Positions 17,069 through 64,000 are shown, numbered from the stretch's first letter. The stretch is DNA of 64,000 bases from Candidatus Staskawiczbacteria bacterium RIFOXYB1_FULL_38_37 (GCA_001822075.1 MHPK01000004.1:71979-135978); one strand, 5' to 3'. The notes: a model not told the origin generated them from the letters alone. Numbers and translations are program-made.

Positions 17069-19255
17069 TTATCTTTTGAAGAATCCTTTTTTATAGGGTT
17101 TTTCTTCAGCTCCCGTGTGCTTGCTCTTGGGCTTGAATCCTGCCTCAATTGCTGAAAGATTTATTCTGCCCATGTCATCAATTGAAATAACTTTTACAGG
17201 AATTTTATCTCCCTCTCTTACAACATCTGCAACCTTATCTATATGCTGGGGTACGAATCTTGATATGTGCACCAGCCCTGATTGTCCGGGCAAAATGTCA
17301 ACAAATGCGCCAAAGTCCATAATTTTTCTGACGGTTCCCGTAAAAGTTTCGCCAATTTCAACTTCTTTTACAATTCCTTTTATCCAGCTGACTGCTTTTT
17401 CAACCCCTGCTTCATCTGTGCCGGTAATAAATACAATTCCAGTATCTTCTATATCAATTGTAACTCCGCATTCTTCAATAATTTTATTTATTACACTTCC
17501 TTTTGGTCCCACAACTTCTCCAATCTTTGAAGGATTAATCGTCATTGTAAATATTTTTGGAGCAAAAGAAGACAAAGATTTTCTGGGTTCTGAAATCTGT
17601 TCCTTTATTATATCAAGTATTTTAAATCTTGCATCTTTTGCCCTGTCTAAAGCTTCTTGCATTATGTTTTTATCAATGCCGTCTGTCTTAATATCCATTT
17701 GAATTGCTGTAATTCCGTTTTTGGTTCCTGCCACTTTAAAATCCATGTGTCCATAGTGGTCTTCCGGGCCCTGAATATCAGTTAACACTTTATATTTTCC
17801 GCTATCTTCATCTTTTGCCAAACCAATTGAAATTCCGGCCACAGGTTCTTTTATAGGCACTCCTGCATCCATTAAAGCAATGCAGGCAGCGCACACAGAA
17901 GCCTGCGAAGTAGAACCGTTGGAAGACACAACTTCAGAAACAATTCTTATTGTGTAAGGAAATTTTTCAACATCCGGAAGTATTGGCGACAATGCTTTTT
18001 CAACCAAAGCTCCGTGCCCAATTTCCCTTCTTTTCGGGCCTCTCATAGGAGCTGTTTCTCCGGAAGAAAATGGAGGAAAATTATAATGGTGCAAGAATCT
18101 TTTTTTGCCAACAAATTCCATACCCTCCAATACCTGCTGGTCGCCGGGTCCTCCTAAAGTTAAAATTGAAAGCACCCTTGTCAGTCCTCTAAAAAATACT
18201 CCGCTTCCATGAGCCCTCGGCAATACCGCAACCTCGCAAGACAAAGGCCTTATTTCAGTTGATTTTCTGCCGTCGGGCCTTTTATCTTTTTCAATTATAT
18301 TTTTAATAATTATTTTTTCTATTTCTTTTTCAAAAAAAGCCAGCGCTTGTTTTTCTTTGCCCTCGCCCGGATATTTTTCTTCTAAATATTTTATTAAGTC
18401 ATCTTTTAAGGATTCGGCAACTGCAAGATTTTTTTCTCTAGCCGGCGCTTCGTTTATTGCTTTTTCTAATTTATCGCCAAGCCATTCTTTTATTTCGTTT
18501 TCAATATCTGATTCAACGGCCGGTTCAAAAATATCTTTTTGCTTTCCGATTTTTTTAACTGCCTGAATTTGAACATCAATAATTTTTTTGAGCTCTTTTT
18601 TGGCAGATTCATAAGCTTCTAAAACATCTTTTTCTAAAACTTCTTTAGCTCCCATTTCAATCATGTTTACCAAAATATCTCCATCCCTTTCTATGGCAGA
18701 TAAAGTTAAGTCCATTTCGCTTTCTTTTCTCTGGCTGTAGCTTGAATTAAATTTCCATTCGCCTGCCTGCGCAGGCAGGCCATTTTTTGTAACTCTGATT
18801 GCCCCCAACGGGCCTGACCACGGAATGTTTGAAACAGCTAAAGCAAATGAAGCTCCAATCATTCCTAAAATATCAGGGTCGTTTTCTCCGTCCCACGAAA
18901 GGCAGGTTACAACAACCTGCACCTCTTTTTTAAAATCTTTTGGAAACAACGGCCTTATAGCTCGGTCAATCATACGGGCAGTTAAAATTGCGTCTTCTGT
19001 CGGCCTTGATTCTCTTTTCATAAACCTTGAGCCGAAAATTTTTCCTGCGGCATAAAACCTTTCCTCGTATTCAACAGTTAAAGGAAAATAATCTATGTCG
19101 GGCCTGGAAAATGGAGAAAGAACAGCGGTTACTAAAACCTCTGTTTCTCCGCACGAAACCAAACAAGAGCCAGATGCCTGCTCTGTCCAGTTTGTAGTTT
19201 TGATTATTATGGGCTTTTCACCCACTTTTATCTCGAATGTATCTTTTACCGCCAT
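17069..19255 (-). CDS. pnp: Polynucleotide phosphorylase
   Basis: Start trimmed to ATG 19255 (MAVKDTFEIKVGEKPI). Two RNase PH domains, a KH domain (GPKGSVINKIIEECG) and an S1 domain (FGAFVDILPGQSGLVHISR). Confidence 0.93.
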   Translation of the reverse strand: MAVKDTFEIKVGEKPIIIKTTNWTEQASGSCLVSCGETEVLVTAVLSPFSRPDIDYFPLTVEYEERFYAAGKIFGSRFMKRESRPTEDAILTARMIDRAIRPLFPKDFKKEVQVVVTCLSWDGENDPDILGMIGASFALAVSNIPWSGPLGAIRVTKNGLPAQAGEWKFNSSYSQRKESEMDLTLSAIERDGDILVNMIEMGAKEVLEKDVLEAYESAKKELKKIIDVQIQAVKKIGKQKDIFEPAVESDIENEIKEWLGDKLEKAINEAPAREKNLAVAESLKDDLIKYLEEKYPGEGKEKQALAFFEKEIEKIIIKNIIEKDKRPDGRKSTEIRPLSCEVAVLPRAHGSGVFFRGLTRVLSILTLGGPGDQQVLEGMEFVGKKRFLHHYNFPPFSSGETAPMRGPKRREIGHGALVEKALSPILPDVEKFPYTIRIVSEVVSSNGSTSQASVCAACIALMDAGVPIKEPVAGISIGLAKDEDSGKYKVLTDIQGPEDHYGHMDFKVAGTKNGITAIQMDIKTDGIDKNIMQEALDRAKDARFKILDIIKEQISEPRKSLSSFAPKIFTMTINPSKIGEVVGPKGSVINKIIEECGVTIDIEDTGIVFITGTDEAGVEKAVSWIKGIVKEVEIGETFTGTVRKIMDFGAFVDILPGQSGLVHISRFVPQHIDKVADVVREGDKIPVKVISIDDMGRINLSAIEAGFKPKSKHTGAEEKPYKKGFFKR
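18761..18780. repeat. 20-bp perfect GC-rich palindrome inside pnp
   Basis: GCCTGCCTGC|GCAGGCAGGC; encodes LPAQAGE within ..VTKNGLPAQAGEWKFN.. Confidence 0.9.
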
Positions 19256-19368
19256 ATTATTTGGCGAGACCGATATACGAATGCATGCCGTTAACACAAA
19301 TTTTTATTTGTATCATCAGTATGAATTAGTATATCTATCCCCGCAATTAATTACTTATTTTTTTAAAA

Positions 19369-20226
19369 TTACTTTAAAAGTTGTTGAACATACTTAATGC
19401 AATCTTCTCTTTCAGTAGAATTTCCATATTTTGAAGGCATTATTTTGTCACATAGAGAAGTATCTTTTTTTTGTATGGCGATTTCTCCGTAACACGTATT
19501 TTTCCTTGCTATCTCTGCTTGTTCATTATCATAAACAGTTCTATTCAAATAATTAGATGAAAAATAAATTTTTTCACAAAAAGCTACATCTGACTTTTCT
19601 CTGGCACACCGTATATAACATTCATTTTTTTCTCCCTCATTAAGTGTTTTTTCACAAGCTACAGAACAGTCAAGCTGACCCATATTCACTGATAGCCTGA
19701 TACATTGGTTATAATAAAAGTTTTCAGGAGTATCTCTTTTTTTTATTTTTTCGCATATCGAAACATCCCCCTTGCTCTTAGATATCTCCACATAACACAT
19801 GGATGCTTTATCATTATCTTTTACATAGCCACACAAATTTTCATCGTTGAGTTTTATAGCTATACTGTAGTAACATTGGCTGTATATCGAATTGTCATTT
19901 ATTTTTTCGCAAATTTTAGGGTTTTCTAACTCTGTAGCCACTCTGCCGTAACAATAATCAATTAATAAAGAATCGTTCAGTCTTTTGCACATAGAAGGGT
20001 CTTCTTCAGAGACGGCATAAGAACTAATTACCTCTAATTCACAGGTTTGTTTTTCAACTTCGGAAAATTTTTCGCAGCCGAAATTTTTTATCATTAAATT
20101 TATTTCCCGATCTTTTTCAATTTTTGGCACAAAGTAATTTTGATATATAAAATACCCCGCTCCTCCCAGCAGAGCGACAACCACAACAGTTAAAATAATT
20201 ATAATGTATAAATATTTTTTGTTCAT
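19369..20226 (-). CDS. Membrane-anchored protein built of repeated Cys-pair modules
   Basis: 285 aa; N-terminal TM helix, then about 8 repeats of the type C-x(8-14)-C-Y/E-x-I/V-A (e.g. ICEKINDNSIYSQCYYSIAIK, LCGYVKDNDKASMCYVEISKS). Confidence 0.65.
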   Translation of the reverse strand: MNKKYLYIIIILTVVVVALLGGAGYFIYQNYFVPKIEKDREINLMIKNFGCEKFSEVEKQTCELEVISSYAVSEEDPSMCKRLNDSLLIDYCYGRVATELENPKICEKINDNSIYSQCYYSIAIKLNDENLCGYVKDNDKASMCYVEISKSKGDVSICEKIKKRDTPENFYYNQCIRLSVNMGQLDCSVACEKTLNEGEKNECYIRCAREKSDVAFCEKIYFSSNYLNRTVYDNEQAEIARKNTCYGEIAIQKKDTSLCDKIMPSKYGNSTEREDCIKYVQQLLK

Positions 20227-20258
20227 AGAATTATTTTTTTAATAAAAATTTTGGCTGA

Positions 20259-21289: not shown

Positions 21290-21558
21290 TATTTTTTAAG
21301 TCCTATTTTTTTAACGATAGCAGAATATCTTTTTTCAGAATTTTTTTTAAGATATGCTAAAAGTTTTTTTCTTGTAATGACCATTTTAATCAGCCCCTTT
21401 TTTGAATGCAGGTCTTTTGGGTGTTTTCTTAAATGCAAAGCCAGCTTATCAATTTCTTTTGACAGCAAGGCAATTTGCACCTCAGAAGACCCGGTGTCTT
21501 TTTCATGGATGCTCGCTTCTTTTATTATTTTTGTTTTTTCTTTGGTTTTTAAAGCCAT
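21289..21558 (-). CDS. rpsO: 30S ribosomal protein S15
   Basis: 89 aa; GSSEVQIALLSKEIDKLALHLRKHPKDLHSKKGL. Confidence 0.95.
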   Translation of the reverse strand: MALKTKEKTKIIKEASIHEKDTGSSEVQIALLSKEIDKLALHLRKHPKDLHSKKGLIKMVITRKKLLAYLKKNSEKRYSAIVKKIGLKK

Positions 21559-21596
21559 ATTCGCTAATTTTTAATTTTAAATTTAAAATTTTAATT

Positions 21597-21736
21597 GAAT
21601 GCCCTAATCTCAAATGTTTAAAACATTCTATCATTTAGATTTCATTTAAAATTTAAAATTTGTTATGAATGCCCTAATCTCAAATGTTTAAAACATTCTA
21701 TCATTTAGATTTCATTTAAAATTTAAAATTTGTTAT
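21597..21736. repeat. Perfect tandem duplication (2 x 70 bp) of an AT-rich hairpin element
   Basis: 21597-21666 is identical to 21667-21736 (GAATGCCCTAATCTCAAATGTTTAAAACATTCTATCATTTAGATTTCATTTAAAATTTAAAATTTGTTAT). Confidence 0.95.
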
Positions 21737-21744
21737 TTAAAATT

Positions 21745-21775
21745 TACAATAAAAGGCTTTTAGCCTTTTATTGTA
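21745..21775 (-). terminator. 13-bp AT-rich hairpin downstream of tRNA-Lys
   Basis: TACAATAAAAGGC-TTTTA-GCCTTTTATTGTA. Confidence 0.45.
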
Positions 21776-21827
21776 GTATACTCTATTTTATCTGTTTTGT
21801 AAAGCTTGCCCTGAGTTTATCAAAGGG

Positions 21828-21898
21828 TGCCCCCACTCAGAATCGGACTGAGATAGGATGCTTAAGAGGCATCTACTTTACCATTAAGTTATGGGGGC
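21828..21898 (-). tRNA. tRNA-Lys (anticodon CUU), no encoded CCA
   Basis: Hand-folded cloverleaf: acceptor GCCCCCA/TGGGGGC, D stem ACTT/AAGT, anticodon loop CTCTTAA, T stem CTCAG/CTGAG. Confidence 0.85.
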
Positions 21899-21903
21899 GA
21901 TAA

Positions 21904-22311
21904 TTAATTGCAATTCATCTGCGGGTTCCACCATGTTCCCATTTGGTACCCAATCACTGAAAGAATAGTGTTGATAATAACCCACGAAGCAAATACTAAA
22001 AATAAGCCGATAATTGCAGAATATAAAATCTTTTTTCCGCTACCCATTAAATTGGGATTGCCGGCAGATATAAGTATAAATACTCCGCCTATTGTTACTC
22101 CCACAATTGCCAAAGGAGTAGCTATGCTCAAGACAAGAAAGTTATAAATATAAATGAGCGTTGCAAAAAAATCGCAAATATCACAGGCATGATAGCCGGG
22201 TTTTGTTGGATCTCCATTTCCGCATCGCACAAACGGCGCTTGGGCTAATGCTAATACAGGAATTAAAATTAATAAAATCAAAACTCCGGATATTAAAAAA
22301 TATGTTTTCAT
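21904..22311 (-). CDS. T4SS-pilin-domain protein (CPR-type TrbC/VirB2-like pilin)
   Basis: Start trimmed to ATG 22311, because the longer ORF runs into tRNA-Arg. Signal peptide MKTYFLISGVLILLILIPVLALA, Cys-containing mature N-terminus, C-terminal ..ISAGNPNLMGSGKKILYSAIIGLFLVFASWVIIN. Confidence 0.75.
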   Translation of the reverse strand: MKTYFLISGVLILLILIPVLALAQAPFVRCGNGDPTKPGYHACDICDFFATLIYIYNFLVLSIATPLAIVGVTIGGVFILISAGNPNLMGSGKKILYSAIIGLFLVFASWVIINTILSVIGYQMGTWWNPQMNCN

Positions 22312-22322
22312 CTTTTTCTTTG

Positions 22323-22395
22323 TGCCCTCGCCAGGACTCGAACCCGGAATCCTCGGTTCGAAGCCGAGCGTGATATCCAGTTTCACCACGAGGGC
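22323..22395 (-). tRNA. tRNA-Arg (anticodon UCG), no encoded CCA
   Basis: Acceptor GCCCTCG/CGAGGGC, D stem GTGA/TCAC, anticodon loop CTTCGAA, T loop TTCGAGT. Confidence 0.88.
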
Positions 22396-22466
22396 ACGCG
22401 GTTAATTTGTTAAATTATACCAAATTTATTGAAAAATATCAATTTTTAAAGTAATATAGAAAAATC

Positions 22467-23969
22467 ATGACAATACCAAAAGAGGTCAAAATCATTATCG
22501 AAAAACTGCAAAAGGCGAAGTTTGAGGCATATATCGTGGGCGGATGCGTGCGCGATTTTTTAATTGGCATTAATCCTAAAGACTGGGACATAACCACAAA
22601 TGCCAAGCCCGAAGAAATCCAAAAAGTTTTTCCGGATAGTTTTTATGAAAATAATTTTTTAACTGTCACCGCGCGCACAGGCAGTAAAAAAATTCCGGAG
22701 GTTGAAATTACTACTTACAGATTAGAAGCAAAATATTCTGACAAGCGTCATCCAGACGAAATAAAATATGCAAAAACATTAGAAGAGGATTTAAGCCGCA
22801 GGGATTTTACCATAAATGCAATGGCCCTTCGCCTCGGCTCAGGGCCTTCGGCCAAAAAAGAAGTTGTTGATTTGTTTGAAGGGCAGAAAGATTTAAAAAA
22901 TAAGATAATCAAGACAGTTGGAAATCCTGAAGAAAGATTTTCAGAAGATGCTTTAAGAATGTTAAGGGCAGTAAGGTTTGCAGCAACTTTGGAAGATGGT
23001 TTTTCCCGCCAAGAGGCGGGACCCCGCCAGAGGCGGTGGAAAATTGAAGAAAATACTGCAGAAGCTATTAAAAAAAATAGCATCTGGCTGGAAGCGATTT
23101 CACAGGAAAGAATAAAAGATGAATTTTTAAAAATAATTATGTCAGATAAAGCTGAAGAAGGAATTGAGCTTTTAAGAGAGCTTAGCTTATTAAAATACAT
23201 AATTCCTGAATTATTGGATAATTACGGCGTAAGCCAAAGCAAACATCATATTTATGACTGCTACCAGCATGCAATAAAATCTTTGGGATATGCTGCAAAG
23301 AAAAAATTTAATATGCATGTAAGATTGGCGGCTCTTTTGCATGATATTGCCAAGCCAAAAGTAAAAATTGGAGAGGGCGAGGAAGCTACTTTTTATAATC
23401 ACGAAATAGTTGGAGCTAAAATAACTTTCCAGCTTCTAAACAGATTAAAATTTTCCAAAAAAGATGTTGAAAAAATAACAAAACTGGTAAGATTCCATTT
23501 GTTTTATTATAATGTTGACGAGGTTGGAGAATCGTCTGTAAGAAGACTGGTAAAAAATGTGGGGCCGGAAAACATAGAAGAGCTTTTGCAGGTAAGGCAG
23601 GCAGACAGGATTGGTTCTGGCGTGCCGAAAGCAGAGCCCTATAAATTAAGGCATTTAAAATATCTGATTGATAAAGTTTCACAGGACCCAATTTCAGCTA
23701 AAATGCTGGAAATTGACGGAAACGATTTGATGAAAATTTTAAAAATAAAACCCGGTCCAAAAATCGGCCAGATTTTAGATATTCTTTTGGGATATGTTTT
23801 AGACGACCCCCAAAAAAATAGCAAAGAATTTTTGCGCAAAGAAGCTGATAAATTGGGCAAATTAAGCCAAAAAGAATTGCAAAAATTGGCGGAAAAATCA
23901 AAGCAGGAAAAACAGGAAGTTGAAACCAAAAAAGACGAAATGACCAAGCAAAAATATTGGGTAACATAA
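22467..23969 (+). CDS. cca: CCA-adding tRNA nucleotidyltransferase with HD domain
   Basis: 500 aa; GGCVRDFLIG..DWDITT head domain and HD motif LLHDIAKP. Carries GC hairpins at 22823-22853 and 23005-23036. Confidence 0.9.
   Translation: MTIPKEVKIIIEKLQKAKFEAYIVGGCVRDFLIGINPKDWDITTNAKPEEIQKVFPDSFYENNFLTVTARTGSKKIPEVEITTYRLEAKYSDKRHPDEIKYAKTLEEDLSRRDFTINAMALRLGSGPSAKKEVVDLFEGQKDLKNKIIKTVGNPEERFSEDALRMLRAVRFAATLEDGFSRQEAGPRQRRWKIEENTAEAIKKNSIWLEAISQERIKDEFLKIIMSDKAEEGIELLRELSLLKYIIPELLDNYGVSQSKHHIYDCYQHAIKSLGYAAKKKFNMHVRLAALLHDIAKPKVKIGEGEEATFYNHEIVGAKITFQLLNRLKFSKKDVEKITKLVRFHLFYYNVDEVGESSVRRLVKNVGPENIEELLQVRQADRIGSGVPKAEPYKLRHLKYLIDKVSQDPISAKMLEIDGNDLMKILKIKPGPKIGQILDILLGYVLDDPQKNSKEFLRKEADKLGKLSQKELQKLAEKSKQEKQEVETKKDEMTKQKYWVT
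23005..23036. repeat. Two tandem GC hairpins inside cca
   Basis: CCCGCC-AAGA-GGCGGG (23005-23020) and CCGCC-AGA-GGCGG (23024-23036); together they encode SRQEAGPRQRR. Confidence 0.85.
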
Positions 23970-24095: not shown

Positions 24096-24113
24096 ACCTG
24101 CCTGTCGGCAGGC
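24096..24113. repeat. GC hairpin in the tRNA-Pro/tRNA-Ala spacer
   Basis: ACCTGCC-TGTC-GGCAGGC; shares CGGCAGGCAGGC with the element at 41329-41349. Confidence 0.7.
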
Positions 24114-24147
24114 AGGCGCGTCATTTTTACCCCGTTAGAAAATTCAC

Positions 24148-27268: not shown

Positions 27269-28189
27269 ATGTCAAAAGAGAGTGGAGTAATTGAAATAAC
27301 TAATAAAAAGTATCCGAAAGCGCTGAAACAGGCGCTTTCGGTTTTGGTGCCAAGCTCTGGCCCGAAAAAATTGTATTACAAAGGAAATTGGTCAGATGAT
27401 ATTTTCAAAAATTGCCTGGCAGTTGTTGGCTCCAGGCATTTAACTTATTATGGCAGAAAGGCCACAGAGCAAATTGTAACAGAATGCGCAGCAGCTGGCA
27501 TTACAATAGTTTCAGGTTTTATGTATGGCGGAGATGAAGCGGCTCATTTAGCTGCTGTAAAATGCGGAGGAAAAACAATTGCTGTTATGCCTTGCGGCAT
27601 AGACTTAATACACCCCGCAAATCAAAAAAATCTATATCAGGAAATTTTAAACAACAACGGCCTTGTAGTTTCAGAATACGAAGGCTCCGCCCAGCCTCAA
27701 AATTTTACCTATGTGCAAAGGGACCGGCTTGTGGCAGGGCTTTCAAAAGCAGTTTTGGTCACGGAGGCTGCTTTAAATTCCGGCTCTTTGATTACGGCCA
27801 GCTATGCCAAAAAATATAACAGAAAAGTTTTTGCTGTGCCAGGGCAAATTACTTCAGAAGTTTCAAGAGGAACTTTAAAATTGATAAAAGAGGGAGCTGA
27901 ACCTGTGGCTGACGCAAGCGATATTTTAAGCTATTTTAAAGTTTTGGTGAATCAAGGAGTTAATCAAGTTGATCGAGCCCCGAGCTCACAAAATTTTGTG
28001 AGCTCGGGGCTCACAAAAACTGGCTCGTTAGAGCAAAAAATAATTGCCCAGTTAAAAAGAGAGGCTTTAAGAGCAGATGAAATGGCAAGAATTTTTAATG
28101 TGCCTGTTGCCCAACTTGGCACAACGTTGTCTTTAATGCAGCTTAAAGGCCAAATTTTACAGGATTTTGGAAAATATTACATCAGTTAA
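27269..28189 (+). CDS. dprA: DNA-processing protein DprA
   Basis: 306 aa; AVVGSRHLTYYGRKAT..GGDEAAH..VSEYEG Rossmann-type DprA core. The linker contains the 38-bp REP palindrome. Confidence 0.88.
   Translation: MSKESGVIEITNKKYPKALKQALSVLVPSSGPKKLYYKGNWSDDIFKNCLAVVGSRHLTYYGRKATEQIVTECAAAGITIVSGFMYGGDEAAHLAAVKCGGKTIAVMPCGIDLIHPANQKNLYQEILNNNGLVVSEYEGSAQPQNFTYVQRDRLVAGLSKAVLVTEAALNSGSLITASYAKKYNRKVFAVPGQITSEVSRGTLKLIKEGAEPVADASDILSYFKVLVNQGVNQVDRAPSSQNFVSSGLTKTGSLEQKIIAQLKREALRADEMARIFNVPVAQLGTTLSLMQLKGQILQDFGKYYIS
27975..28012. repeat. 38-bp perfect palindrome (head-to-head REP pair) inside dprA
   Basis: GAGCCCCGAGCTCACAAAA|TTTTGTGAGCTCGGGGCTC; the same GTGAGC-N5-GCTCAC unit that flanks the RAYT gene. 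Confidence 0.9.
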
Positions 28190-32440: not shown

Positions 32441-33316
32441 ATGCCTGAATTGCCGGAAGTTGAAACCACAGTCAAAGGCTTAAAATCAAAGGTCCTGAAC
32501 AGGGCCTTTGTTGATGTGTGGTCAGACTGGGAAAAAACAATTAAAAAACCAAAATTATTTAAAGATTTTAAAAAGCATATAAAAGGCAAAAAAATATTAA
32601 AAATTTGGCGTCGCGCCAAAAATATAATTTTTGACTTGTCGGGCGGATATTCCCTTTTAGTGCACCAAAAAATGACAGGACATCTTCTCTATGGAACATG
32701 GAACATAAAACATGGAACATGGGCGCCAGCTGGAAACAAAAATTTAGAAGACCCGATGAATAAATTTTTGCATTTAATATTTTTTTTGAATGATGGAAAA
32801 ATGCTTGCCTTGTCGGATTTAAGGAAATTCGCCAAAGTTGAATTACAAAAAACTGATGAATTATTAAATTCAAAAGAATTTAAAAATTTGGGGCCCGAAC
32901 CATTAGAAAAAGATTTTACTTTTAAGAAATTTAAATCCTGCCTCGCCGCTAGGCGAGGCAGGATAAAGCAGGTTTTAATGGACCCTTACATAATAGCTGG
33001 CATAGGAAACATTTATTCTTCTGAAGCATTGTGGCAGGCAAAAATACATCCTGAAAAAAGTGTTGCAAAATTAAGTGAAAAAGAGTTAAAATTGCTTTAT
33101 AATGCAATTAAAAAGGTTTTGACCATTTCTGTTAAATTGGGTGGAGAAAGTTTTTCTGATTATAGAAAAGTTGACGGAAGCAAGGGGAATTTTGACGCAG
33201 AAAGAAAAGCGTATAAAAGAGAAGGCCAAAAATGCCAAAGATGCAAAACCCTAATTAAACGTTTAAAATTTGCAGGCAGAAGCGCCTTTTTCTGCCCCAA
33301 CTGCCAAAAATTGTGA
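32441..33316 (+). CDS. mutM: Formamidopyrimidine-DNA glycosylase
   Basis: 291 aa; N-terminal MPELPEVET and C-terminal zinc finger CQRCKTLIKRLKFAGRSAFFCPNCQK. The TGA stop lies inside a REP hairpin. Confidence 0.9.
   Translation: MPELPEVETTVKGLKSKVLNRAFVDVWSDWEKTIKKPKLFKDFKKHIKGKKILKIWRRAKNIIFDLSGGYSLLVHQKMTGHLLYGTWNIKHGTWAPAGNKNLEDPMNKFLHLIFFLNDGKMLALSDLRKFAKVELQKTDELLNSKEFKNLGPEPLEKDFTFKKFKSCLAARRGRIKQVLMDPYIIAGIGNIYSSEALWQAKIHPEKSVAKLSEKELKLLYNAIKKVLTISVKLGGESFSDYRKVDGSKGNFDAERKAYKREGQKCQRCKTLIKRLKFAGRSAFFCPNCQKL
32935..32964. repeat. 30-bp GC palindrome (13-bp perfect arms) inside mutM
   Basis: ATCCTGCCTCGCC-GCTA-GGCGAGGCAGGAT; encodes ..SCLAARRGRI.. Confidence 0.9.
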
Positions 33317-34146
33317 GCCCCGAGCTCACAAGAGTTTGTAAAACTAAAAAATGACTATATTAGACCATGCCGCGGAGAAAAGAACAATTTGTAACCGGCG
33401 AGATTTATCATATTGTAATACGAGCGATTGATAATAACTTGATTTTTAAGGACTTAAACGATTATTATCGCGGCATTTTTTCTATTTACGAGTTTAATAA
33501 CGCCATCCCTGTGAATATTTTTAATCGACGATTAGCCAGGACCGCTGAAAAGAAAAAAGAAAAATTTTGTGAGCTCGGGGCTCACAAAATTTTAGTAGAA
33601 GATGCAAGAGATAAATTTATTAAAGTTTTAGCTTTTTGCTTTATGCCAAACCACGTTCATCTTCTGACAAAACAAATAAAAGACGGGGGAATATCCAAAT
33701 TTATGCAAAAAGTTGGAGGCGGATACGGAGGATATTTTAACAGAAAATATCAGAGGAAGGGTCATGTTTTTCAAAACGAATTTAAATCGGTTCATGTGGA
33801 TACAGATAATCAGCTTATAGCGACAGCTTCGTATATTTTTACAAACCCTATTGCACTTATTGAACCCAGTTGGAAGGAAAAAGGAATTCAAAAACATTCT
33901 GTAAAGGAGGTCTCAAAGTTTTTGGAAGACTATAAATGGTCAAGTTATCAAGACTGCATTGGCGTTAAAAATTTCCCTTCTGTTACAGAAAGAGAATTTC
34001 TTTTAGAAACAATGGGCGGAATAAATGGCTTGAATGGAGTTGTAAAAGATTGGATAGAGCATAAAAAAGACATTGCAAAATACACAGACTTATTTTTAGA
34101 GTAAATCTTGTGAGCTCGGAGCTCACAAGATTTTGTGAGCTCACAA
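33313..34146 (+). mobile_element. REP-RAYT unit: Y1 transposase gene bracketed by GTGAGC-N5-GCTCAC hairpins
   Basis: REP copies at 33313-33329 (loop CCCGA), 33561-33593 (inside the gene), 34104-34132 (loop TCGGA, opposite orientation) and 34133-34146 (loop-less). Confidence 0.75.
33367..34104 (+). CDS. REP-associated tyrosine transposase (IS200/IS605-type Y1 HUH transposase-like)
   Basis: 245 aa; HUH motif MPNHVHLL and catalytic Tyr context ASYIFTNP. Confidence 0.8.
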   Translation: MPRRKEQFVTGEIYHIVIRAIDNNLIFKDLNDYYRGIFSIYEFNNAIPVNIFNRRLARTAEKKKEKFCELGAHKILVEDARDKFIKVLAFCFMPNHVHLLTKQIKDGGISKFMQKVGGGYGGYFNRKYQRKGHVFQNEFKSVHVDTDNQLIATASYIFTNPIALIEPSWKEKGIQKHSVKEVSKFLEDYKWSSYQDCIGVKNFPSVTEREFLLETMGGINGLNGVVKDWIEHKKDIAKYTDLFLE

Positions 34147-34326
34147 GATTTTTTGAGCTTTTTTGTGCTAATTATTACTCAAAAAATAGAAAACAAAGAA
34201 TCAGAGCTAAAAGATTGTATAATTACAAAAAAATGCTTTAATCAAACAATACAGTCATATTTGGGGGTTTTAAAGCATTGTAATAGTTATAAAATTAAAG
34301 AAAATGTATTTAATAAATTTTTGGGA

Positions 34327-35277
34327 ATGATTATATTTTTGTACGGAGAAGATTCTTATAGATCCAAGGAAAAATTAAATGAAATAATAGGGCACTATAA
34401 AAAAGTCCACAAAAGCGGACTGAATTTGATTTTTATTGATGCTATAGAAAAAACGTTTAATGATTTTTTTGACAGCCTTAAAATTGTTTCAATGTTTGCA
34501 GAAAAAAAACTGGTGGTTGTGAAAAATGTATTTTCCGCCAAAGGCGGACCAGCCCCGGGCTGGCAGGAAGAATTTTTAAAAGAAGTTAATAATTTTAAAA
34601 ATATAAAAGATATTATTGTTATTTATGAAAATGATAAAGTTGATGAGAGGCCAAAACTTTTTAAACAGCTAAAAACTCATGCAAAATGCCAGGAGTTTAA
34701 TTTGCTTCAGCCAGCCATGCTGAAAAAGTGGATAGACAAAGAATTTGAAAAGTACGGCTCAAAAATTGATCTGCCAGCAAAAGATCTGTTATCAGCATAT
34801 ACTGGAGATGATTTATGGAAAATGGCAAATGAAATTAAAAAGCTGGCAAATTATAAAAGGGAAGGCATAGTAAAAAAAGAAGATGTTGAGCTTCACATTA
34901 GACCTAAAATTGAAAACGATATTTTTAAAACAATTGATGCTATTTCGCAGAAAAATAAAGGCCAGGCAGTAGGGCTGCTTCACAAGCATTTAGATAACGG
35001 AGACGCTCCCTTGTATATGCTTTCTATGATAGCTTATCAATTCAAAAATCTTTTGATTATAAAAGAACTGGCTGAAAAAGAAGCTGGCTATCAGGCGATT
35101 GTAAAAAAAAGCGGGCTTCACCCGTTTGTAGTTCAAAAGAATTATTATTTGTGCCAGCGCTTTACATCAAGCCAGTTAAAAAAAATCTACCAGAAAATTT
35201 TTCAGGCAGATTCAGATATTAAAACAGGCAAGATAGATCCGGAGCTGGCTTTGGATATGCTGGTGGCTGAAATTTAA
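34327..35277 (+). CDS. holA: DNA polymerase III delta subunit
   Basis: Start trimmed to ATG 34327 (MIIFLYGEDSYRSKEKLNEI), because the upstream extension is REP-derived sequence. Typical HolA length and N-terminus. Confidence 0.8.
   Translation: MIIFLYGEDSYRSKEKLNEIIGHYKKVHKSGLNLIFIDAIEKTFNDFFDSLKIVSMFAEKKLVVVKNVFSAKGGPAPGWQEEFLKEVNNFKNIKDIIVIYENDKVDERPKLFKQLKTHAKCQEFNLLQPAMLKKWIDKEFEKYGSKIDLPAKDLLSAYTGDDLWKMANEIKKLANYKREGIVKKEDVELHIRPKIENDIFKTIDAISQKNKGQAVGLLHKHLDNGDAPLYMLSMIAYQFKNLLIIKELAEKEAGYQAIVKKSGLHPFVVQKNYYLCQRFTSSQLKKIYQKIFQADSDIKTGKIDPELALDMLVAEI
34534..34563. repeat. Exactly 30-nt (10-codon) double GC hairpin inside holA
   Basis: TCCGCC-AAA-GGCGGA followed by CCAGCCCCGGGCTGG; starts on a codon boundary and encodes SAKGGPAPGW. 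Confidence 0.9.
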
Positions 35278-40940: not shown

Positions 40941-40962
40941 CCGTCCCGCCATGGCGGGACGG
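40941..40962. terminator. GC hairpin between rpoB and a convergent small gene
   Basis: CCGTCCCGC-CATG-GCGGGACGG. The A-run on the + strand side gives a U-tract for the minus-strand gene; there is no U-tract for rpoB. Confidence 0.6.
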
Positions 40963-41308: not shown

Positions 41309-41992
41309 ATGAAAAACCAAAAAGACCATGCCTCCCGGCAGGCAGGCATTTCAACATTAATTGGCATAATGGTTATTGTCGCTGTGACAGTTTTAACCTT
41401 CGGCGGAGTTTTTGCATATCAATATTTTTCGACACCAAAAGAAAAAAATCAGCAGCAGATTGAGGACCAAACCGCTGGCTGGAAAACATATAAAAATAAT
41501 GAATATGGTTTTGAAATAAAATATCCAGCTGATTTTAAAATAAACGAAAATTATTACTATGATCTTTCTGCAGGAACAAGCAATAGCGGTTCATTAAATC
41601 TTCCTGGAGTTTCGTTCTCGATTCCGGTTTCTTACACAGACGGAACAAATTTATCTCCTGACACAAAAATATCTGTTGAAATGAATGCGAAGTCAAAAAA
41701 TTGTCTGGTTACGGAATTTTTAAATTCTCCAAACCCCGTTATAGATATCACAGATGAAATTATAAATAAAATTATCTTTAATAGAGGAACAACGGGCGAT
41801 GCAGGCATGGGAAACTATTATAACGAAACTGTTTATAGTACGAAAGGTTTAACTCCTTGCTATGGAATCCGTTTGTTCGTACACAGCACATCTTTAGGAA
41901 ATTATGAACCAGAGACAAGGGTGGCGTATGATTCGGAAAAATTACAATCAGTTTTTAAACAAATTATTTCTACTTTTAAATTTATAAAATAA
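41309..41992 (+). CDS. Membrane-anchored secreted hypothetical protein
   Basis: 227 aa; N-terminal TM helix ISTLIGIMVIVAVTVLTFGGVFAY, then AGWKTYKNNEYGFEIKYPADF. A GC hairpin at 41329-41349 encodes ASRQAGI. Confidence 0.65.
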   Translation: MKNQKDHASRQAGISTLIGIMVIVAVTVLTFGGVFAYQYFSTPKEKNQQQIEDQTAGWKTYKNNEYGFEIKYPADFKINENYYYDLSAGTSNSGSLNLPGVSFSIPVSYTDGTNLSPDTKISVEMNAKSKNCLVTEFLNSPNPVIDITDEIINKIIFNRGTTGDAGMGNYYNETVYSTKGLTPCYGIRLFVHSTSLGNYEPETRVAYDSEKLQSVFKQIISTFKFIK

Positions 41993-45000: not shown

Positions 45001-45620
45001 TAAAGATTCAGCCCGCCTCGCGTCAAGGCGGGCCAGAGAACAAGAAAGCTGCCAAGAAGGGTATAATGGAATATAAAATTCCTGGCAGAATTGCCATGCT
45101 TGTTGAAAAAGGCCAGGATATAAAAGAAAACCAGCCTTTGTGCGAAGGTTCGCTTGATTTAAAAAAGCTGTACAAATCAGCAGGAGTTGAGGAAACCCAG
45201 AGGTATATTTTGAAGGAAGTGCAAAAAATTTATTCTTCGCAGGGGGTTGATATTCATGACAAACATATTGAAACTATAATTCAAAAAATGTTTTCAAGAA
45301 TAAGAGTGAAAGAAGAAGGAGATTCTGATTGGATAAGAGGAGAGGTTGTTGAAAAAGCTATTTTTGAAGAAGAGGCGGATGCTCTCAAAAAATCCAAGAA
45401 AACTCCGCCGGCAGGAACTCAAATATTACTTGGAATTTCAGAAGTTGCATTAAATTCGGAATCATTTTTGTCAGCAGCTTCCTTTCAGCAGACTTCAAGG
45501 GTTTTGATTAAAGCATCTTTAGAAGGCAAGGAAGACAGGTTGCGCGGATTAAAAGAAAACGTAATTATAGGAAAACTTATACCTGTTGGAACAGGATTTA
45601 TCCCGAAAGAAAAAAAATAA
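42015..45620 (+). CDS. rpoC: DNA-directed RNA polymerase beta-prime subunit
   Basis: 1201 aa; zinc motif CACGKYKRIRYKGVVCDRCGV and catalytic NADFDGDQMAV. Confidence 0.95.
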   Translation: MRVLDLESIRIKLASPDDIMSWSHGEVIKPETINYRTQKPEKDGLFDERIFGPEKDYECACGKYKRIRYKGVVCDRCGVEVTKSSVRRERMGHIKLYAPVSHIWFLRGVPSRMGLVLDKSSQQLEKVIYFSSYIVTKVDSEARDRILDAIEEEYKTKVKKEKTEAAKNELRIAREKAKEEVLEIKPLKILSEVVYHALSMKYGEVFEAGTGAEVVREIFSKVDLKKGVEELSKEAKEAPPAMKKKVLRRLKLFQGMLKAGVRPEWMFLEILPVLPPDLRPMVQLDGGRYASSDLNDLYRRVINRNNRLKYLQEISAPSVIVRNEKRMLQEAVDALIDNEMRKGVTTTATTGGKRLLKSLAAMLAGKQGRFRQNLLGKRVDYSGRSVIAVGPELHFSQCGLPKTLALEIFKPFVVKRVLDKELAYNIRGASRLIEEKVPEVWAILEEIVKEKLVLLNRAPTLHRLGIQAFRPVLTEGETIKLHPLVCEAFNADFDGDQMAVYLPLSDEAQKEAKEIMLSTLNLLRPATGLPVMGPFRDIALGCYFLTKLNAVEDKKQLKVYSSGSEAITAYEYGFLGLNDVIKVQNPKSDKDELIETSVGRLILNSSLPHDYFYINKLVDNKGLKQLVREVIEKYPNEEAVVILDKIKHLGFEYCTLSGISWGMDDLIVPPEKGKLIGEAEEEVRRIDSHFEKGLLSSEEKTSQKILVWQSVKTKIEALLKDTLPAEGPVMSIINAGARGTWAQPVQMAGMKGLVNNPAGDIIELPIKSSFAEGFNVLEYFISTHGARKGTADTALRTSSAGYLTRRLVDVAHDVIITEEDCGDKTGFVVYKKDAEAIDQDFIFKIVGRTTVENIETKAEGSERGRRILAKKGELIDWKTADEILKSGIERVVVRSPLACKLGQGVCQKCYGWDLGKNKLVKLGEAVGIVAAQAIGEPGTQLTLRTHHLGGIVGAGDITQGLPRIEEIFESRAPKGEAIMSLTDGKVIAIDEEKRIVKIQPASRQGGPENKKAAKKGIMEYKIPGRIAMLVEKGQDIKENQPLCEGSLDLKKLYKSAGVEETQRYILKEVQKIYSSQGVDIHDKHIETIIQKMFSRIRVKEEGDSDWIRGEVVEKAIFEEEADALKKSKKTPPAGTQILLGISEVALNSESFLSAASFQQTSRVLIKASLEGKEDRLRGLKENVIIGKLIPVGTGFIPKEKK
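45011..45033. repeat. GC hairpin inside rpoC
   Basis: GCCCGCC-TCGCGTCAA-GGCGGGC; encodes PASRQGGP. Confidence 0.85.
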
Positions 45621-45633
45621 TTAGTAATTAGAA

Positions 45634-45675
45634 ACAAAAACAGCCCCGCCAAGGCGGGGCTGTTTTTGTTTTGGT
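45634..45675 (+). terminator. rpoC intrinsic terminator
   Basis: ACAAAAACAGCCCCGCC-AA-GGCGGGGCTGTTTTTGT followed by TTTT. Confidence 0.85.
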
Positions 45676-45685
45676 AAAACATACC

Positions 45686-45735
45686 AGTCGGTGGGGTGTC
45701 CGACACCCCACCGACTCACGTGATGAGTCACGTGA
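45686..45735. promoter_or_regulatory. 14-bp perfect hairpin plus two TCACGTGA palindromes upstream of the orphan gene promoter
   Basis: AGTCGGTGGGGTGT-CCG-ACACCCCACCGACT (45686-45716), then TCACGTGA at 45716-45723 and 45728-45735, 12 bp centre to centre. Confidence 0.55.
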
Positions 45736-45766
45736 GGGCGTGCGAGGCGAGAGCAGGTTTGAATAC

Positions 45767-45795
45767 TTGACAAGGTGGTTGATATATGATATAAT
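45767..45795 (+). promoter_or_regulatory. Consensus sigma70-type promoter of the orphan gene
   Basis: TTGACA, 17 nt, TATAAT. The -10 context TATGATATAAT..ATATAG is nearly the same as at 5876-5895. AAAGGAG RBS at 45847-45853. Confidence 0.65.
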
Positions 45796-48410: not shown

Positions 48411-50068
48411 TGAAAGAAGAAATAAAAAAACTAATTGAAAAAGCAATAAAAGACTTGCAGAAAGAGAAAAAATTGCCGGAATTTCAAATTCCAAATATTT
48501 CGATTTTTAATTCAAAAATTTTGTCGTACGGAGATTATAATACAGACATACTTTTTAAATTAAATAAAATATACAATATATCACCAGAAGTAATTGTTAA
48601 ACCATTGTTTAAAAAAATTACTAGCAGTAATACTTACGATAAATTTGATGATGTTGAGCTACTTAACGGCTTTATCAATTTTTTTATTAAAGATGAGTAT
48701 CTGCAAAATCAGCTGGAAGTAATTTTAAAGGAAAAAGATAAATTTGGAAATTTAAATTTAGAAGAAAAAGTTCACCCAGTTAAATCCGCCAAAGGCGGTA
48801 CTTCGCTAAAAGCGAAGCAATTTAACCGGGTAAATATAGAATTTATTTCAGCAAATCCGACAGGGCCTTTGACCTTGGGAAACGGAAGGGGCGGATTTTG
48901 CGGAGATGCTCTGGCAAATATTTTAGAAAAAGCAGGATATAAAGTTTCAAGAGAATATTATGTTAACGATACGGGAAATCAAATTAACAAATTAGGACAT
49001 TCTGTAATTGGAGACGCAGAAGCTGTTTATAAAGGAGAATATATAAATGAATTGCAGAAAAAAATAAAAGGCAATAACCCGCAGGACATTGGAGAAAAAG
49101 CGTCAAAAGTTATTTTTGAAAAAATGATAAAGCCGTCTGTAAAAAAAATGGGAGTTAAATTTGACACATGGTTTTCAGAAAAAACTTTGTATAAAAACAA
49201 AGAAGTGGATGAGGCCATAAACGAATTATCAAAAAAAGGATTTACTTATGAAAGCGAGGGCGCTTTGTGGTTTAGATCAAAAGATTTGGGGGACGACAAA
49301 GACAGGGTTTTAATAAGAGCCGATGGGATTAAAACTTATTTCGCTTCGGATATTGCCTATTTAAAAAACAAATTTAAAAGAGATTTTAACAAATTAATTA
49401 TATTTTTGGGGGCTGACCATTACGGCTATGTGGCTCGCTTAAAAGCTGCCTCGCACGCTTTAGGTTTTGGCGAAGACAGCATTGATGCTATTGTAATGCA
49501 GTTGGTTCGTCTTTTTGAAAAAGGCAAAGAAGTTAGAATGTCAAAAAGAAGCGGCATTTATGTGACAATAGACGAATTAATAGATGAGGTTGGGTTGGAT
49601 GTTGCCAGATTTTTCTTTTTAATGATAGGCCCAAACACGCATTTAAATTTTAATTTGGATTTAGCTAAAGAAAAATCAGAGAAAAATCCGGTTTTTAAGG
49701 TTCAGTACGCATATGCTCGGATTTGCTCAATTATTCGCAAATCCAAGAATTTTCAATTTTCAATTTTTAATTTTCAATCAAATTATAACTTAAAATTATT
49801 AAATGAAAAAAGCGAATTGGAATTGATCAAGCAATTAATTAGGTTTCCGGAAATTGTTGAGGACATTGCCAAAGATTATCAAGTTCAAAGATTGCCGAAA
49901 TATGCCATGGAATTAGCCGACTCTTTTCATAAATTTTATGAAAATTGCCAGGTAATTTCAAAAAATAAAGAATTAACAAAAGCCCGGCTTTCTCTTATTT
50001 CGGCAACAAAAATTGTTTCAAAAAATACTTTAGATTTAATGGGTATATCAACGCCCGAGAGAATGTAA
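48410..50068 (+). CDS. argS: Arginyl-tRNA synthetase
   Basis: 552 aa; EFISANPTGPLTLGNGRG, MSKRSG, C-terminal anticodon-binding domain. Contains repeat insertions at 48775-48830 and about 49745-49790. Confidence 0.93.
   Translation: MKEEIKKLIEKAIKDLQKEKKLPEFQIPNISIFNSKILSYGDYNTDILFKLNKIYNISPEVIVKPLFKKITSSNTYDKFDDVELLNGFINFFIKDEYLQNQLEVILKEKDKFGNLNLEEKVHPVKSAKGGTSLKAKQFNRVNIEFISANPTGPLTLGNGRGGFCGDALANILEKAGYKVSREYYVNDTGNQINKLGHSVIGDAEAVYKGEYINELQKKIKGNNPQDIGEKASKVIFEKMIKPSVKKMGVKFDTWFSEKTLYKNKEVDEAINELSKKGFTYESEGALWFRSKDLGDDKDRVLIRADGIKTYFASDIAYLKNKFKRDFNKLIIFLGADHYGYVARLKAASHALGFGEDSIDAIVMQLVRLFEKGKEVRMSKRSGIYVTIDELIDEVGLDVARFFFLMIGPNTHLNFNLDLAKEKSEKNPVFKVQYAYARICSIIRKSKNFQFSIFNFQSNYNLKLLNEKSELELIKQLIRFPEIVEDIAKDYQVQRLPKYAMELADSFHKFYENCQVISKNKELTKARLSLISATKIVSKNTLDLMGISTPERM
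48775..48830. repeat. 56-nt composite structured element inside argS
   Basis: Outer stem CCCAGTTAAA/TTTAACCGGG (9 of 10 pairs) encloses the hairpins TCCGCC-AAA-GGCGG and CTTCGC-TAAAA-GCGAAG; encodes HPVKSAKGGTSLKAKQFNR. Confidence 0.85.
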
Positions 50069-60333: not shown

Positions 60334-60342
60334 ATATAAAAA

Positions 60343-62654: not shown

Positions 62655-62846
62655 AGTTTTAATATAATAACAGAAATAAGAATGATTAAAATTTGGCTTG
62701 AAAATTTCCAGAACACTGGGATTTTTTTTATACTGCAAAAAATAAGTTCGGCATTTTAGACTTAATTGCGGCTCCCAAAAGCATATGAACCAAAAGTATC
62801 ATTGTTTTTTAGAATAATTTTGATAGTATTAAGTAATTATAATAAT

Positions 62847-64000
62847 ATGTTCGGAAAAAAGCATGCCCGCCATAATGCCGCATCCGCCGAAAGGGCAAAG
62901 CCCATTGAGGCGGACAGGGTTTTAGGCGGGAAAAAATTTTATATTACGACCACGCTTCCTTATGTAAATGCTGACCCGCATATTGGTTTTGCCTTAGAAA
63001 TTATTCAGGCTGATGTTTTGGCGCGCTACCATAAAAATTTGGGAGAGGACGTGTTTTTTAACACAGGAGTTGATGAACACGGCTTAAAAATTTTTCGCAA
63101 GGCGCAGGAAAGCAATATGGATGCCCATGCATATTGCGATGTTTATGCTAAAAAGTTTGATGATTTAAAGCGGGCGCTTAACTTAAGCTATAATAATTTT
63201 ATAAGAACAACAGACGAGCGCCATATTAAGGCAGCTCAGGAGTTTTGGCTAAGGTGCCAGACAAACGGAGATATTTATAAAAAAAATTATAAAAGTAAAT
63301 ATTGCGTGGGTTGCGAAATGGAAAAAACAAATTCTGAATTAGAAAACGGCAGATGCCCGGTTCATCCTAATTTAGAATTAGAAATAATCGACGAAGAGAA
63401 TTATTTTTTTAAGCTTTCTAAATATCAAGATAAGCTTATAGAGCTTTATAAAAAAAATTATGATTTTGTAATACCGCAATCTAAGCTGAATGAAATAAGC
63501 GAGTTTGCAAAGAGAGGATTGCAAGATTTTAGCATTTCAAGGTTAAAAGAAAAACTGCCCTGGGGCGTGCCAGTGCCAGGAGATGATAAGCATGTAATGT
63601 ATGTTTGGTTTGATGCTTTGGTAAATTATATTTCCTGCTTAGGGTGGCCAAAAGACCAGAAAAAATTTAAAGATTTTTGGCCGGGCACGCAAATTGCAGG
63701 AAAAGATAATTTGCGCCACCAAGCTTTAATGTGGCAGGCAATGTTAATGTCAGCTGGACTGCCTAATTCAAAACAAGTTTTTATACATGGATTTATAACA
63801 GCAGGTGGGCAAAAGATGTCAAAATCATTGGGAAACGTTATAAATCCTTTTGAGCTTGTAGAAAAATATGGAGCTGATGCAGTTAGATATTATTTGTTAA
63901 GAGAAATACCATCTGCAGAAGACGGCGATTTTACTTATGAAAAATTTGAAGCAAGGTATAATTCTGATTTAGCCGGCGGTATTGGAAATCTTGTGGCAAG
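62847..64000 (+). CDS. metG: Methionyl-tRNA synthetase (partial; continues past the window end)
   Basis: Not in the ORF track (no stop in the window). Hand translation: MFGKKHARHNAASAERAKPIEADRVLGGKKFYITTTLPYVNADPHIGFALE..CVGCEME..CPVH..GQKMSKSLGN. The first ~28 codons are GC-rich hairpin sequence. Confidence 0.9.
   Translation, partial: MFGKKHARHNAASAERAKPIEADRVLGGKKFYITTTLPYVNADPHIGFALEIIQADVLARYHKNLGEDVFFNTGVDEHGLKIFRKAQESNMDAHAYCDVYAKKFDDLKRALNLSYNNFIRTTDERHIKAAQEFWLRCQTNGDIYKKNYKSKYCVGCEMEKTNSELENGRCPVHPNLELEIIDEENYFFKLSKYQDKLIELYKKNYDFVIPQSKLNEISEFAKRGLQDFSISRLKEKLPWGVPVPGDDKHVMYVWFDALVNYISCLGWPKDQKKFKDFWPGTQIAGKDNLRHQALMWQAMLMSAGLPNSKQVFIHGFITAGGQKMSKSLGNVINPFELVEKYGADAVRYYLLREIPSAEDGDFTYEKFEARYNSDLAGGIGNLVA

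Follow-up and report, generated by a model that had tools for sequence, protein, structure and literature searches.

A 64-kb stretch of the genome of Candidatus Staskawiczbacteria bacterium RIFOXYB1_FULL_38_37 (MHPK01000004.1:71979-135978), which we call the window, contains small GC-rich hairpins that lie in frame inside housekeeping genes, among them argS, rpoC, cca, holA, and pnp. The bacterium belongs to the Parcubacteria within the candidate phyla radiation (CPR, or Patescibacteria), whose genomes are usually called streamlined and repeat-poor. The hairpins are probably very short selfish palindromes of several families, similar to repetitive extragenic palindromic (REP) sequences and Rickettsia palindromic elements (RPEs), that were inserted into an AT-rich, gene-dense CPR genome. 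Sequence comparison indicates that they are extra DNA relative to orthologues and that they are present in some close relatives and absent from others. One element is shared by unrelated genes and by many organisms, and structural models place the inserts in disordered loops or linkers. Judging from their frame and length, the inserts would be translated.

The window has a GC content of 36%, and coding sequence makes up about 87% of it. A first-pass annotation, made by a model from the sequence alone, had named the host genes; Pfam agreed for PNPase, the CCA-adding enzyme, Fpg/MutM, the Pol III delta subunit, ArgRS, and MetRS, and the identity of RpoC was supported by 80 homologous loci. For ArgRS, the CCA-adding enzyme, Pol III delta, RpoC, PNPase, and DprA, the metagenome-assembled genome RIFOXYC1_FULL_37_43 encodes proteins identical to those of the window, and the host proteins, inserts included, are carried on 36 to 52 contigs from NCBI, JGI, ENA, and Logan. 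All 12 hairpins of the first-pass annotation were located where it had placed them. Its list was real but incomplete, lacking the hairpins at 27314-27341, 27975-28012, 33311-33331, 33561-33593, and 34103-34150.

The hairpins exceed what base composition and codon usage predict. Counting perfect stems of at least 6 bp with at least six G:C pairs and a loop of 3 to 12 nt, we found 11 loci in the window, compared with 0.6 in dinucleotide shuffles. Coding sequences contained six such stems, compared with about 0.6 after synonymous-codon or codon-order shuffling within each gene; with the threshold relaxed to at least five G:C pairs, the counts were 16 and about 3.4. Intragenic GC-rich stems are thus 5 to 10 times commoner than in codon-shuffled controls, the comparison that the first-pass annotation had named as one that could refute its reading. 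Sixteen of the 24 GC-stem loci in the window are intragenic. The elements are 15 to 56 nt long with stems of 6 to 17 bp, and each folds far better than its own shuffles (z of -2.6 to -11). The palindromes had been described as one family; they do recur, but they comprise several sequence families. In addition to the double-hairpin family described below, stems that recur in about 1.9 Mb of related DNA include CCTGCC(TG)..(CA)GGCAGG, which is the type found in pnp and in a tRNA spacer, TCCCGC-TAAG-CGGGA, and CCCGCC..GGCGGG. The same 1.9 Mb, made up of loci chosen for the pattern, held 147 TCCGCC stems and 108 CCAGCC stems.

Alignment of the host genes with their orthologues provided the evidence for insertion. 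The argS element (48775-48830, plus strand, as are the other elements unless noted, except the hairpins 3' of rpoB and rpoC, which are given no strand) is a 56-nt composite in which an 11-bp outer stem surrounds TCCGCC-AAA-GGCGG and ACTTCGC-TAAA-GCGAAG, with a three-way fold of z -5.2. It encodes an 18-amino-acid insertion absent from 59 of the 59 nearest ArgRS sequences, including some that are 75 to 76% identical. In rpoC (GCCCGCCT-loop-AGGCGGGC, 45011-45033), the encoded ASRQGGP is exactly the 7 amino acids (21 nt) that more than 10 of the nearest RpoC proteins lack, at a site in a variable K-rich linker. Near the 5' end of ORF41309, the hairpin TGCCTCCCGGCAGGCAGGCAT (41329-41349; z of -2.8) encodes HASRQAG, a 7-amino-acid insertion relative to the homologue in locus L004 (MKNQR-------GISTL). 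The pnp hairpin GCCTGCCTGCGCAGGCAGGC (18761-18780, minus strand), with an 8-bp stem and a z of -3.7, encodes LPAQAG; the insert comprises 5 amino acids (LPAQA) relative to L083, L084, and L085. Two PNPase homologues, P0386 and P0387, lack GLPAQA despite belonging to the same 90%-identity cluster, so this element is polymorphic among close relatives. The pnp 20-mer also lies within open reading frames (ORFs) of L058, with close variants in L006 and L055. The holA element (34531-34563), TTT TCCGCC-AAA-GGCGGA CCAGCC-CCG-GGCTGG, encodes FSAKGGPAPGW. This comparison rests on L210, whose orthologue lacks the element (the window has a net gain of 5 codons), and L149, which has the element with a different second loop.

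The cca gene contains two such elements, both resolved with 120 homologues and six DNA loci. At site 1 (22823-22853), the hairpin encodes ALRLGSGPSA and corresponds to an 18-nt (6-amino-acid) insertion relative to L082, L086, and L087. At site 2 (23002-23039), the double hairpin TTT TCCCGCC-AAGA-GGCGGGA CCCCGCC-AGA-GGCGG TGG (FSRQEAGPRQRRW) corresponds to a net insertion of 42 nt (14 amino acids). Its empty allele reads ACT TTA AAT TTT/AAA ATT, with the slash at the junction, and its filled allele reads TTT TCCCGCCAAGAGGCGGGA CCCCGCCAGAGGCGG TGG. The 36-nt core of this element is identical in L083, although the gene as a whole has 78% nucleotide identity (57% at third codon positions); it differs by 1 nt in L087, and the closer relatives L081 and L082 lack it. 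Separately, we observed unrelated inserts at or beside site 2 in other CCA homologues (GPALSGSK and IPTRDESGSRIHDGIG, in P0134/P0136 and P0165/P0182), and the site looks like a general hot spot of small insertions.

Structural models suggest that these segments are tolerated as unstructured additions. In AlphaFold models, built on homologue alignments, the predicted local distance difference test (pLDDT) score falls below 50 at CCA residues 126 to 128 (site 1) and 180 to 188 (site 2) and at ArgRS residues 119 to 138, the ArgRS model having a mean of 88; the CCA and ArgRS inserts are the only low-confidence, unstructured stretches in their vicinity. Every measured net insertion is a multiple of three and contains no stop in the host frame. 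Several expectations of the first-pass annotation were borne out, namely, that the hairpins keep the frame, that the encoded residues fall in loops or linkers (here supported by the cca, argS, and rpoC inserts), and that presence and absence vary between strains, as seen for pnp within one 90%-identity cluster and in the patchy cca inserts. Among members of the 90%-identity clusters, only pnp varied; argS, holA, rpoC, and mutM showed no presence/absence variation. The orthologue alignments that the annotation had called for revealed sharp lineage-specific inserts in rpoC, ORF41309, argS, cca (both sites), pnp, and holA, but in mutM a replacement of equal length, which is considered below. For metG (62883-62914; a TCCGCC...GGCGGA outer stem around an inner GGGC-AAA-GCCC), the hairpin is present, but its description as an insert needs qualification: it lies inside a 28-amino-acid N-terminal extension, and solved MetRS structures all align from about query residue 29, downstream of it. 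A tblastn search for mutM, holA, and argS in the 80 rpoC genome loci returned none, and synteny near rpoC is poorly kept.

The element in holA belongs to a family that extends far beyond the window. The family has the form TCCGCC-N3-GGCGGA/CCAGCC-N3-GGCTGG, is 30 nt long, and has a 5' TTT flank. The first-pass annotation had pointed out that the core TCCGCCAAAGGCGG occurs in both holA and argS in the same frame (SAKGG in each case), which we confirmed, and it had proposed a wider scan for recurring stems, which uncovered the same element in different genes and species. At cca site 2 of another Staskawiczbacteria species (L086), for example, the sequence is TTT TCC GCC CAA GGC GGA CCA GCC TCG GGC TGG, which differs from the holA element by one base per loop and is in the same frame. 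At least 120 public metagenome contigs match TCCGCCNNNGGCGGACCAGCCNNNGGCTGG, a pattern with 24 fixed bases; these contigs range from 31 to 70% GC (median, 41%). Among the matches listed, there were 126 distinct copies, 94 of them in ORFs of at least 150 amino acids. Sixty-five of these 94 share a single sense frame (binomial p = 2e-29), which encodes [F/I]-SAxGGPAxGW; four of the other five frames account for the remainder. Hosts checked with Pfam include a MurE-like Mur ligase, RNase R, ArgRS, a PMT-type glycosyltransferase, PurD, a MiaB-like enzyme, UvrD, RecG, and GluRS.

The boundaries of the 30-nt element show consistent features. T is present at positions -3 to -1 in 78, 111, and 95 of 120 copies, respectively, and by eye, the TTT flank is present in most copies outside the main frame too; T is avoided at position +1. 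The loops are variable, and the two loops of a copy are often partly complementary. A target-site duplication was considered and rejected: the apparent GAyTTT repeats are mainly DnaJ-type G/F-rich repeats, and none accompanies the clean cca site, where the empty TTT/AAA of other alleles corresponds to TTT[30 nt]AAA in L086. A scan of viral contigs yielded a single match and thus no sign of a phage vector. Two further observations concern this family. In L106, ArgRS has SALGGPASGW at its N terminus and a variant, SAQGGSAWGG, before the anticodon-binding domain, both at sites unlike that of the window's argS element. Tandem clusters of two to three copies, 50 to 90 nt apart, occur in L103 (12-180), L143, L116 (725-922), and L167; some belong to contigs of 58 to 61% GC, and one falls within the G/F-rich region of a DnaJ-like protein.

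Pairing is kept even where the sequence of the stems changes. Variant double hairpins remain paired (TCAGCC/GGCTGA, TCGGCC/GGCCGA, CTAGCC/GGCTAG, and TGCGCC/GGCGCA). The TCC..GGA of L086 corresponds to TCT..AGA at the orthologous cca site of L085, at the price of a Gly-to-Arg change, and the 13-bp stem of mutM is kept in L209 and L210 through a compensatory change from C-G to T-A. Such changes fit either selection on the hairpin or mechanical correction of the palindrome. The inserts are also scattered phylogenetically. On a neighbor-joining tree of 120 CCA proteins, drawn without support values, the window-type insert at site 2 appears in three separate clades, the holA type at the same site appears in at least 3, and the RLGSGQA-type insert at site 1 appears in at least 10. 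The site 2 pattern would, on this comparison of sequences, imply that one site gained the insert more than once, that the insert was precisely lost more than once, or that it was transferred laterally.

One palindrome family in the window is associated with a candidate mobilizing enzyme. Between mutM and holA, on the plus strand, lies a gene (33367-34104) for a 245-amino-acid HUH-Y1 transposase resembling those of IS200 and the REP-associated tyrosine transposases (RAYTs), which matched Pfam Y1_Tnp at 44 bits (cutoff, 23; E value, 2.7e-11). The first-pass annotation had not mentioned this gene. Nine homologues share the motifs YH..R, PNHxH (HUH), and YxxxN; a sequence search of the PDB gave no meaningful match. 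In L210, mutM is followed directly by holA, with no transposase gene between them, which marks the gene as inserted DNA in the window. Palindromes bracket it: TTGTGAGC-CCCGA-GCTCACAA (33311-33331) adjoins the mutM stop codon, and ATCTTGTGAGCTCGGAGCTCACAAGAT followed by TTGTGAGCTCACAA (34103-34150) overlaps the start of holA. The downstream palindromes consist of TTGTGAGC-TCGGA-GCTCACAA and another copy, and the upstream and downstream loops are reverse complements. The same arrangement, with the genome's own palindrome on each side of the gene, is seen in seven of nine homologous loci, the loops being reverse complements wherever they are asymmetric. By its sequence layout, the TTGTGAGC..GCTCACAA family together with the transposase appears to be a REPtron.

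Copies of this palindrome are also found within genes. An exact copy lies in frame inside the transposase ORF itself (33561-33593), encoding FCELGAHK. Internal cognate hairpins are present in the same variable protein loop in L002 (12129-12145) and L054 (1931-1949), and this recurrence in three RAYT-like genes could reflect autoregulation or a hot spot at which such genes are repeatedly hit by their own element. In dprA, an inverted, REPIN-like doublet of the TTGTGAGCTCGGGGCTC unit (27975-28012) forms a 17-bp stem with a z of -11.4 and lies in frame in the linker, C-terminal to the DNA_processg_A domain (amino acids 6 to 214). It matches the transposase-flanking hairpins exactly, although it is not clearly extra relative to PDB 3MAJ. 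A hairpin near the 5' end of dprA (CCGAAAGCGC-loop-GCGCTTTCGG, 27314-27341; 10-bp stem, z of -6.1) is unrelated to the doublet.

We propose that the elements spread as single-stranded DNA hairpins, with Y1 transposases acting in trans to move them by cut and paste, the mechanism suggested for REPs and REPINs, and that the GC-rich families would behave like the transposase-linked family, with a putative mobilizing activity of their own. With about 87% of the genome taken up by coding sequence, most insertions would land in genes. Survivors would be those that keep the frame, contain no stop codon, and fall in tolerant surface loops, a filter that could account for both the SAxGGPAxGW frame bias and the location of the inserts in loops.

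Several results weigh against this model. The transposase scored 39.6 bits against the curated NCBIfam model NF047646 (REP_Tyr_transpos), under its cutoff of 80. An iterated-profile search of 4,715 ORFs in 2.3 Mb around double-hairpin copies detected nine RAYT-like genes and no other Y1 genes, and none of the nine is flanked by hairpins of the GC-rich families, each having other palindromes instead. The DNA examined yielded no cognate enzyme for those families (the TCCGCC/CCAGCC double hairpin, CCTGCCTG, and CCCGCC). Nor do the GTAG/CGTC tags of classical REPs stand out: the consensus of 120 double-hairpin copies has none, and CGTC appears beside the tRNA-spacer hairpin and in the rpoC loop, inconsistently. 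Simple insertion also fails to explain mutM, where the hairpin ATCCTGCCTCGCC-GCTA-GGCGAGGCAGGAT (32935-32964; 13-bp stem, encoding KSCLAARRGRI) puts SCLAARRGR in place of the DILKDKKGR of the closest relative. This is a swap of equal length with 16 of 27 nt changed, in which residues are substituted conservatively (KK to RR) or retained (L and G), and its carriers are patchily spread among relatives. At cca site 2, the identical 36-nt element in three non-sister lineages, together with the adjacent GAA GAT codons and flanks that are only 77 to 78% identical, calls for extreme target specificity or lateral recombination. Finally, the copy counts per family rest on 64 kb of genome, in which each family has 1 to 5 copies; REP systems have tens to thousands in a whole genome.

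A more specific idea is that the 30-nt double hairpin is a single, still-active mobile "coding mini-cassette" moving between genes and many Patescibacteria lineages, its structure being recognized by a conserved enzyme or favored by an uptake bias. We consider this conceivable but rather doubtful. If it were true, the same 10-residue loop (SAxGGPAxGW) would have been added repeatedly to core enzymes, and the cassette would be the smallest known horizontally spreading element shaping proteins across a superphylum. An alternative to mobility is that the hairpins are selected mRNA or DNA structures, serving in stabilization, pausing, processing, antisense blocking, or protein binding, that evolved or were recruited site by site. 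Selection of this kind would suit the compensatory stem changes kept even at an amino acid cost (GGA to AGA, or G to R, in L085, and the mutM carriers), the conservative equal-length swap in mutM, the T-runs that follow the pnp and tRNA-spacer hairpins on the plus strand, and the retention of a cognate hairpin in the same loop of the transposase ORFs of three genomes. It is, nonetheless, an unlikely explanation for an identical 30-nt sequence found in more than 100 unrelated genes, in several frames and at no fixed distance from gene ends. Moreover, close relatives differ in presence with no sign of a linked functional change, intragenic copies have no U-tracts on the sense strand, and intrastrand template switching (palindrome correction) could mimic compensation without selection. 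Even so, the compensatory changes and the mutM replacement leave room for selected structure as an additional layer.

Natural transformation followed by homologous recombination between related CPR lineages, an uptake-signal-like molecular drive, could also have spread the elements, by carrying a hairpin already resident in a conserved gene into the orthologues of other species. The 36-nt element with GAA GAT at one cca site in three non-sister lineages, the patchiness of SCLA[AV]RRG in mutM, the conserved housekeeping nature of the hosts, and the competence or recombination functions encoded in the window (DprA and a ComM-like Mg-chelatase-family protein) are all in keeping with it. As the main route of spread, however, it seems improbable, since the first arrival of one element in unrelated genes is left unexplained, the density is about one per 5 to 10 kb split over several families, and the elements are palindromes rather than oriented 9- to 12-mers. 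To our knowledge, known uptake sequences are far denser. Transformation-driven spread may be a further layer, given the identical element in non-sister lineages. A different idea is that the segments are never translated, being skipped by ribosomal bypass or removed from RNA or protein. The byp elements of Magnusiomyces mitochondria are GC-rich hairpin inserts in AT-rich genes, and the analogy might be drawn here; we give it very little credence, as all measured net insertions are multiples of three without stops in the host frame and a strong bias to one frame would be expected if a translated peptide were under selection. High proportions of G, A, P, R, and S are found in the encoded peptides, as would be the case for any GC-rich DNA, which raises the question of chance, of codon usage at GC-rich Gly/Ala/Pro/Arg linker codons, or of an assembly artifact. 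We assign these a negligible probability: shuffled controls, folding z scores, and contigs from several public sources rule them out, and copies at orthologous positions have diverged through loop substitutions and compensatory changes in the stem. Insertion of short selfish palindromes remains the reading that we favor.

The intergenic hairpins include one that is related to the pnp element by its stem family, CCTGCCTG-TCGG-CAGGCAGG in the spacer between tRNA-Pro and tRNA-Ala (24096-24117). The hairpins 3' of rpoB and rpoC had been described as terminators in the first-pass annotation. This description fits rpoC, whose hairpin (45632-45671; 18-bp stem, z of -10) has a core related to the CCCGCC family and is preceded by an A-tract and followed by TTTTTGTTT. 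By eye, the arrangement fits both strands, and a terminator scan listed only a short minus-strand stem within it; from these sequence features, it is likely a bidirectional intrinsic terminator. The description does not fit rpoB as well, since its intergenic hairpin (CCGTCCCGCC-ATGG..., 40941-40962; 9-bp stem) is not canonical, with a T-tract on the minus strand only, and is terminator-like on that strand alone. The intragenic copies lack this feature of intrinsic terminators, having no T-run after the stem on the sense strand. Just past the rpoC terminator are two other palindromes, AGTCGGTGGGGTGTC..GACACCCCACCGACT (45686-45736) and CACGTGA..TCACGTG (45767-45795), and 3' of these is a perfect match to a TTGACA-17-TATAAT promoter, with the TG of an extended -10 element.

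Elsewhere in the window, Rfam at gathering thresholds detected four tRNAs and nothing else. The region from 2212 to 13000 holds a cluster of genes of mobile-element type, which encode a TraG/VirB4-like ATPase, a PrgI-family protein, two "23S rRNA intervening sequence" proteins, and an MNT/HepT and an AbiEii toxin-antitoxin pair; between 16.5 and 21.3 kb are genes for two ORF6N proteins and an NYN nuclease. The GC skew changes sign at about 21300 to 22470, and gene orientation switches from minus to plus at about 22 kb, beside tRNA-Lys and tRNA-Arg. These changes may mark a replication origin or terminus.

If our interpretation is correct, selfish palindromes persist even in CPR genomes, where intergenic space is scant, by residing inside essential genes as translated loops. 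They would then be a candidate source of many of the small lineage-specific insertions in CPR proteins, and annotation and structure prediction should treat such segments as disordered insertions rather than as conserved motifs. SAxGGPAxGW and the 30-nt motif could serve as markers with which to type strains and to follow the exchange of DNA among lineages. REP/RAYT-type HUH transposition would be placed in a phylum for which the literature that we searched contains no report, and several natural transposases, each with its own flanking hairpin, are suited to study in vitro. The first-pass annotation was not aware of a description of such elements in CPR genomes, and our full-text literature searches turned up none: no in-frame palindromes in CPR/Patescibacteria and no link between RAYTs and Patescibacteria were described, the peptide GGPASGW appeared in no paper, and double-hairpin elements appeared in the mitochondrial literature only.

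Similar elements are known from other systems. The first-pass annotation had likened the hairpins to RPEs and yeast mitochondrial GC clusters, that is, to mobile palindromes. Insertion, excess over shuffles, polymorphism, and the recurrence of one element across genes and species uphold the general idea, but the closer counterparts are intragenic REPs with RAYTs, including the short RPE-4 and RPE-6, rather than RPE-1. Intragenic REPs, many of them in replication and repair genes, have already been published, and RPE-4 and RPE-6 of Rickettsia were classed as short CGTC REPs (Di Nocera 2013, PMC3733652). Like the REP/RAYT system, the elements described here are short, dispersed palindromes (20 to 40 nt) whose dimers form larger hairpins, as in the dprA doublet, and a Y1 HUH gene lies between inverted cognate palindromes, here for the TTGTGAGC family only. 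They differ in that the curated RAYT score is not reached, no consistent GTAG/CGTC tag is evident, and the GC-rich families have no cognate enzyme in the examined DNA. Most copies are intragenic (16 of 24 in the window and 94 of 126 for the double hairpin), whereas REPs are mainly extragenic, and the 30-nt family keeps its stems across many organisms, whereas many REP families are species specific.

The likeness to RPEs lies in palindromic repeats placed in frame in unrelated housekeeping genes of a reduced genome, each adding a peptide, although translation here is deduced from frame and length. RPEs (Ogata et al. 2000, as summarized in PMC10969869 and PMC3733652) are described as in frame in genes, translated, and predicted to be compatible with the fold. 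RPE-1-type elements, in contrast, are about 100 to 150 bp long and confined to Rickettsia, while the elements in the window are 15 to 56 nt, have unrelated sequences, are GC-rich relative to their genome, and occur in a different phylum. With yeast mitochondrial GC clusters and the elements of Allomyces mitochondria, they share short G+C-rich hairpins in an A+T-rich genome, presence or absence between close relatives, an architecture of two adjacent hairpins, and insertions that are tolerated in coding or rRNA sequences; the double-hairpin elements of Allomyces mitochondrial DNA were reportedly described by Paquin et al. in 2000. The mitochondrial elements are organellar and have no sequence relationship to ours. 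We know of no transposase association for mitochondrial GC clusters or double hairpins, whereas one family in the window has such an association. Miniature inverted-repeat transposable elements are likewise small and nonautonomous and can form in-frame fusions, but the elements in the window are several times shorter, have no terminal inverted repeats apart from the hairpin itself, and show no target-site duplication at cca site 2, the one site at which empty and filled alleles were compared. What is new relative to all these systems is the host phylum, the tiny size and GC contrast, the mainly intragenic location, the fixed-stem 30-nt family spread over many organisms, and the cognate hairpin inside the transposase ORFs themselves.

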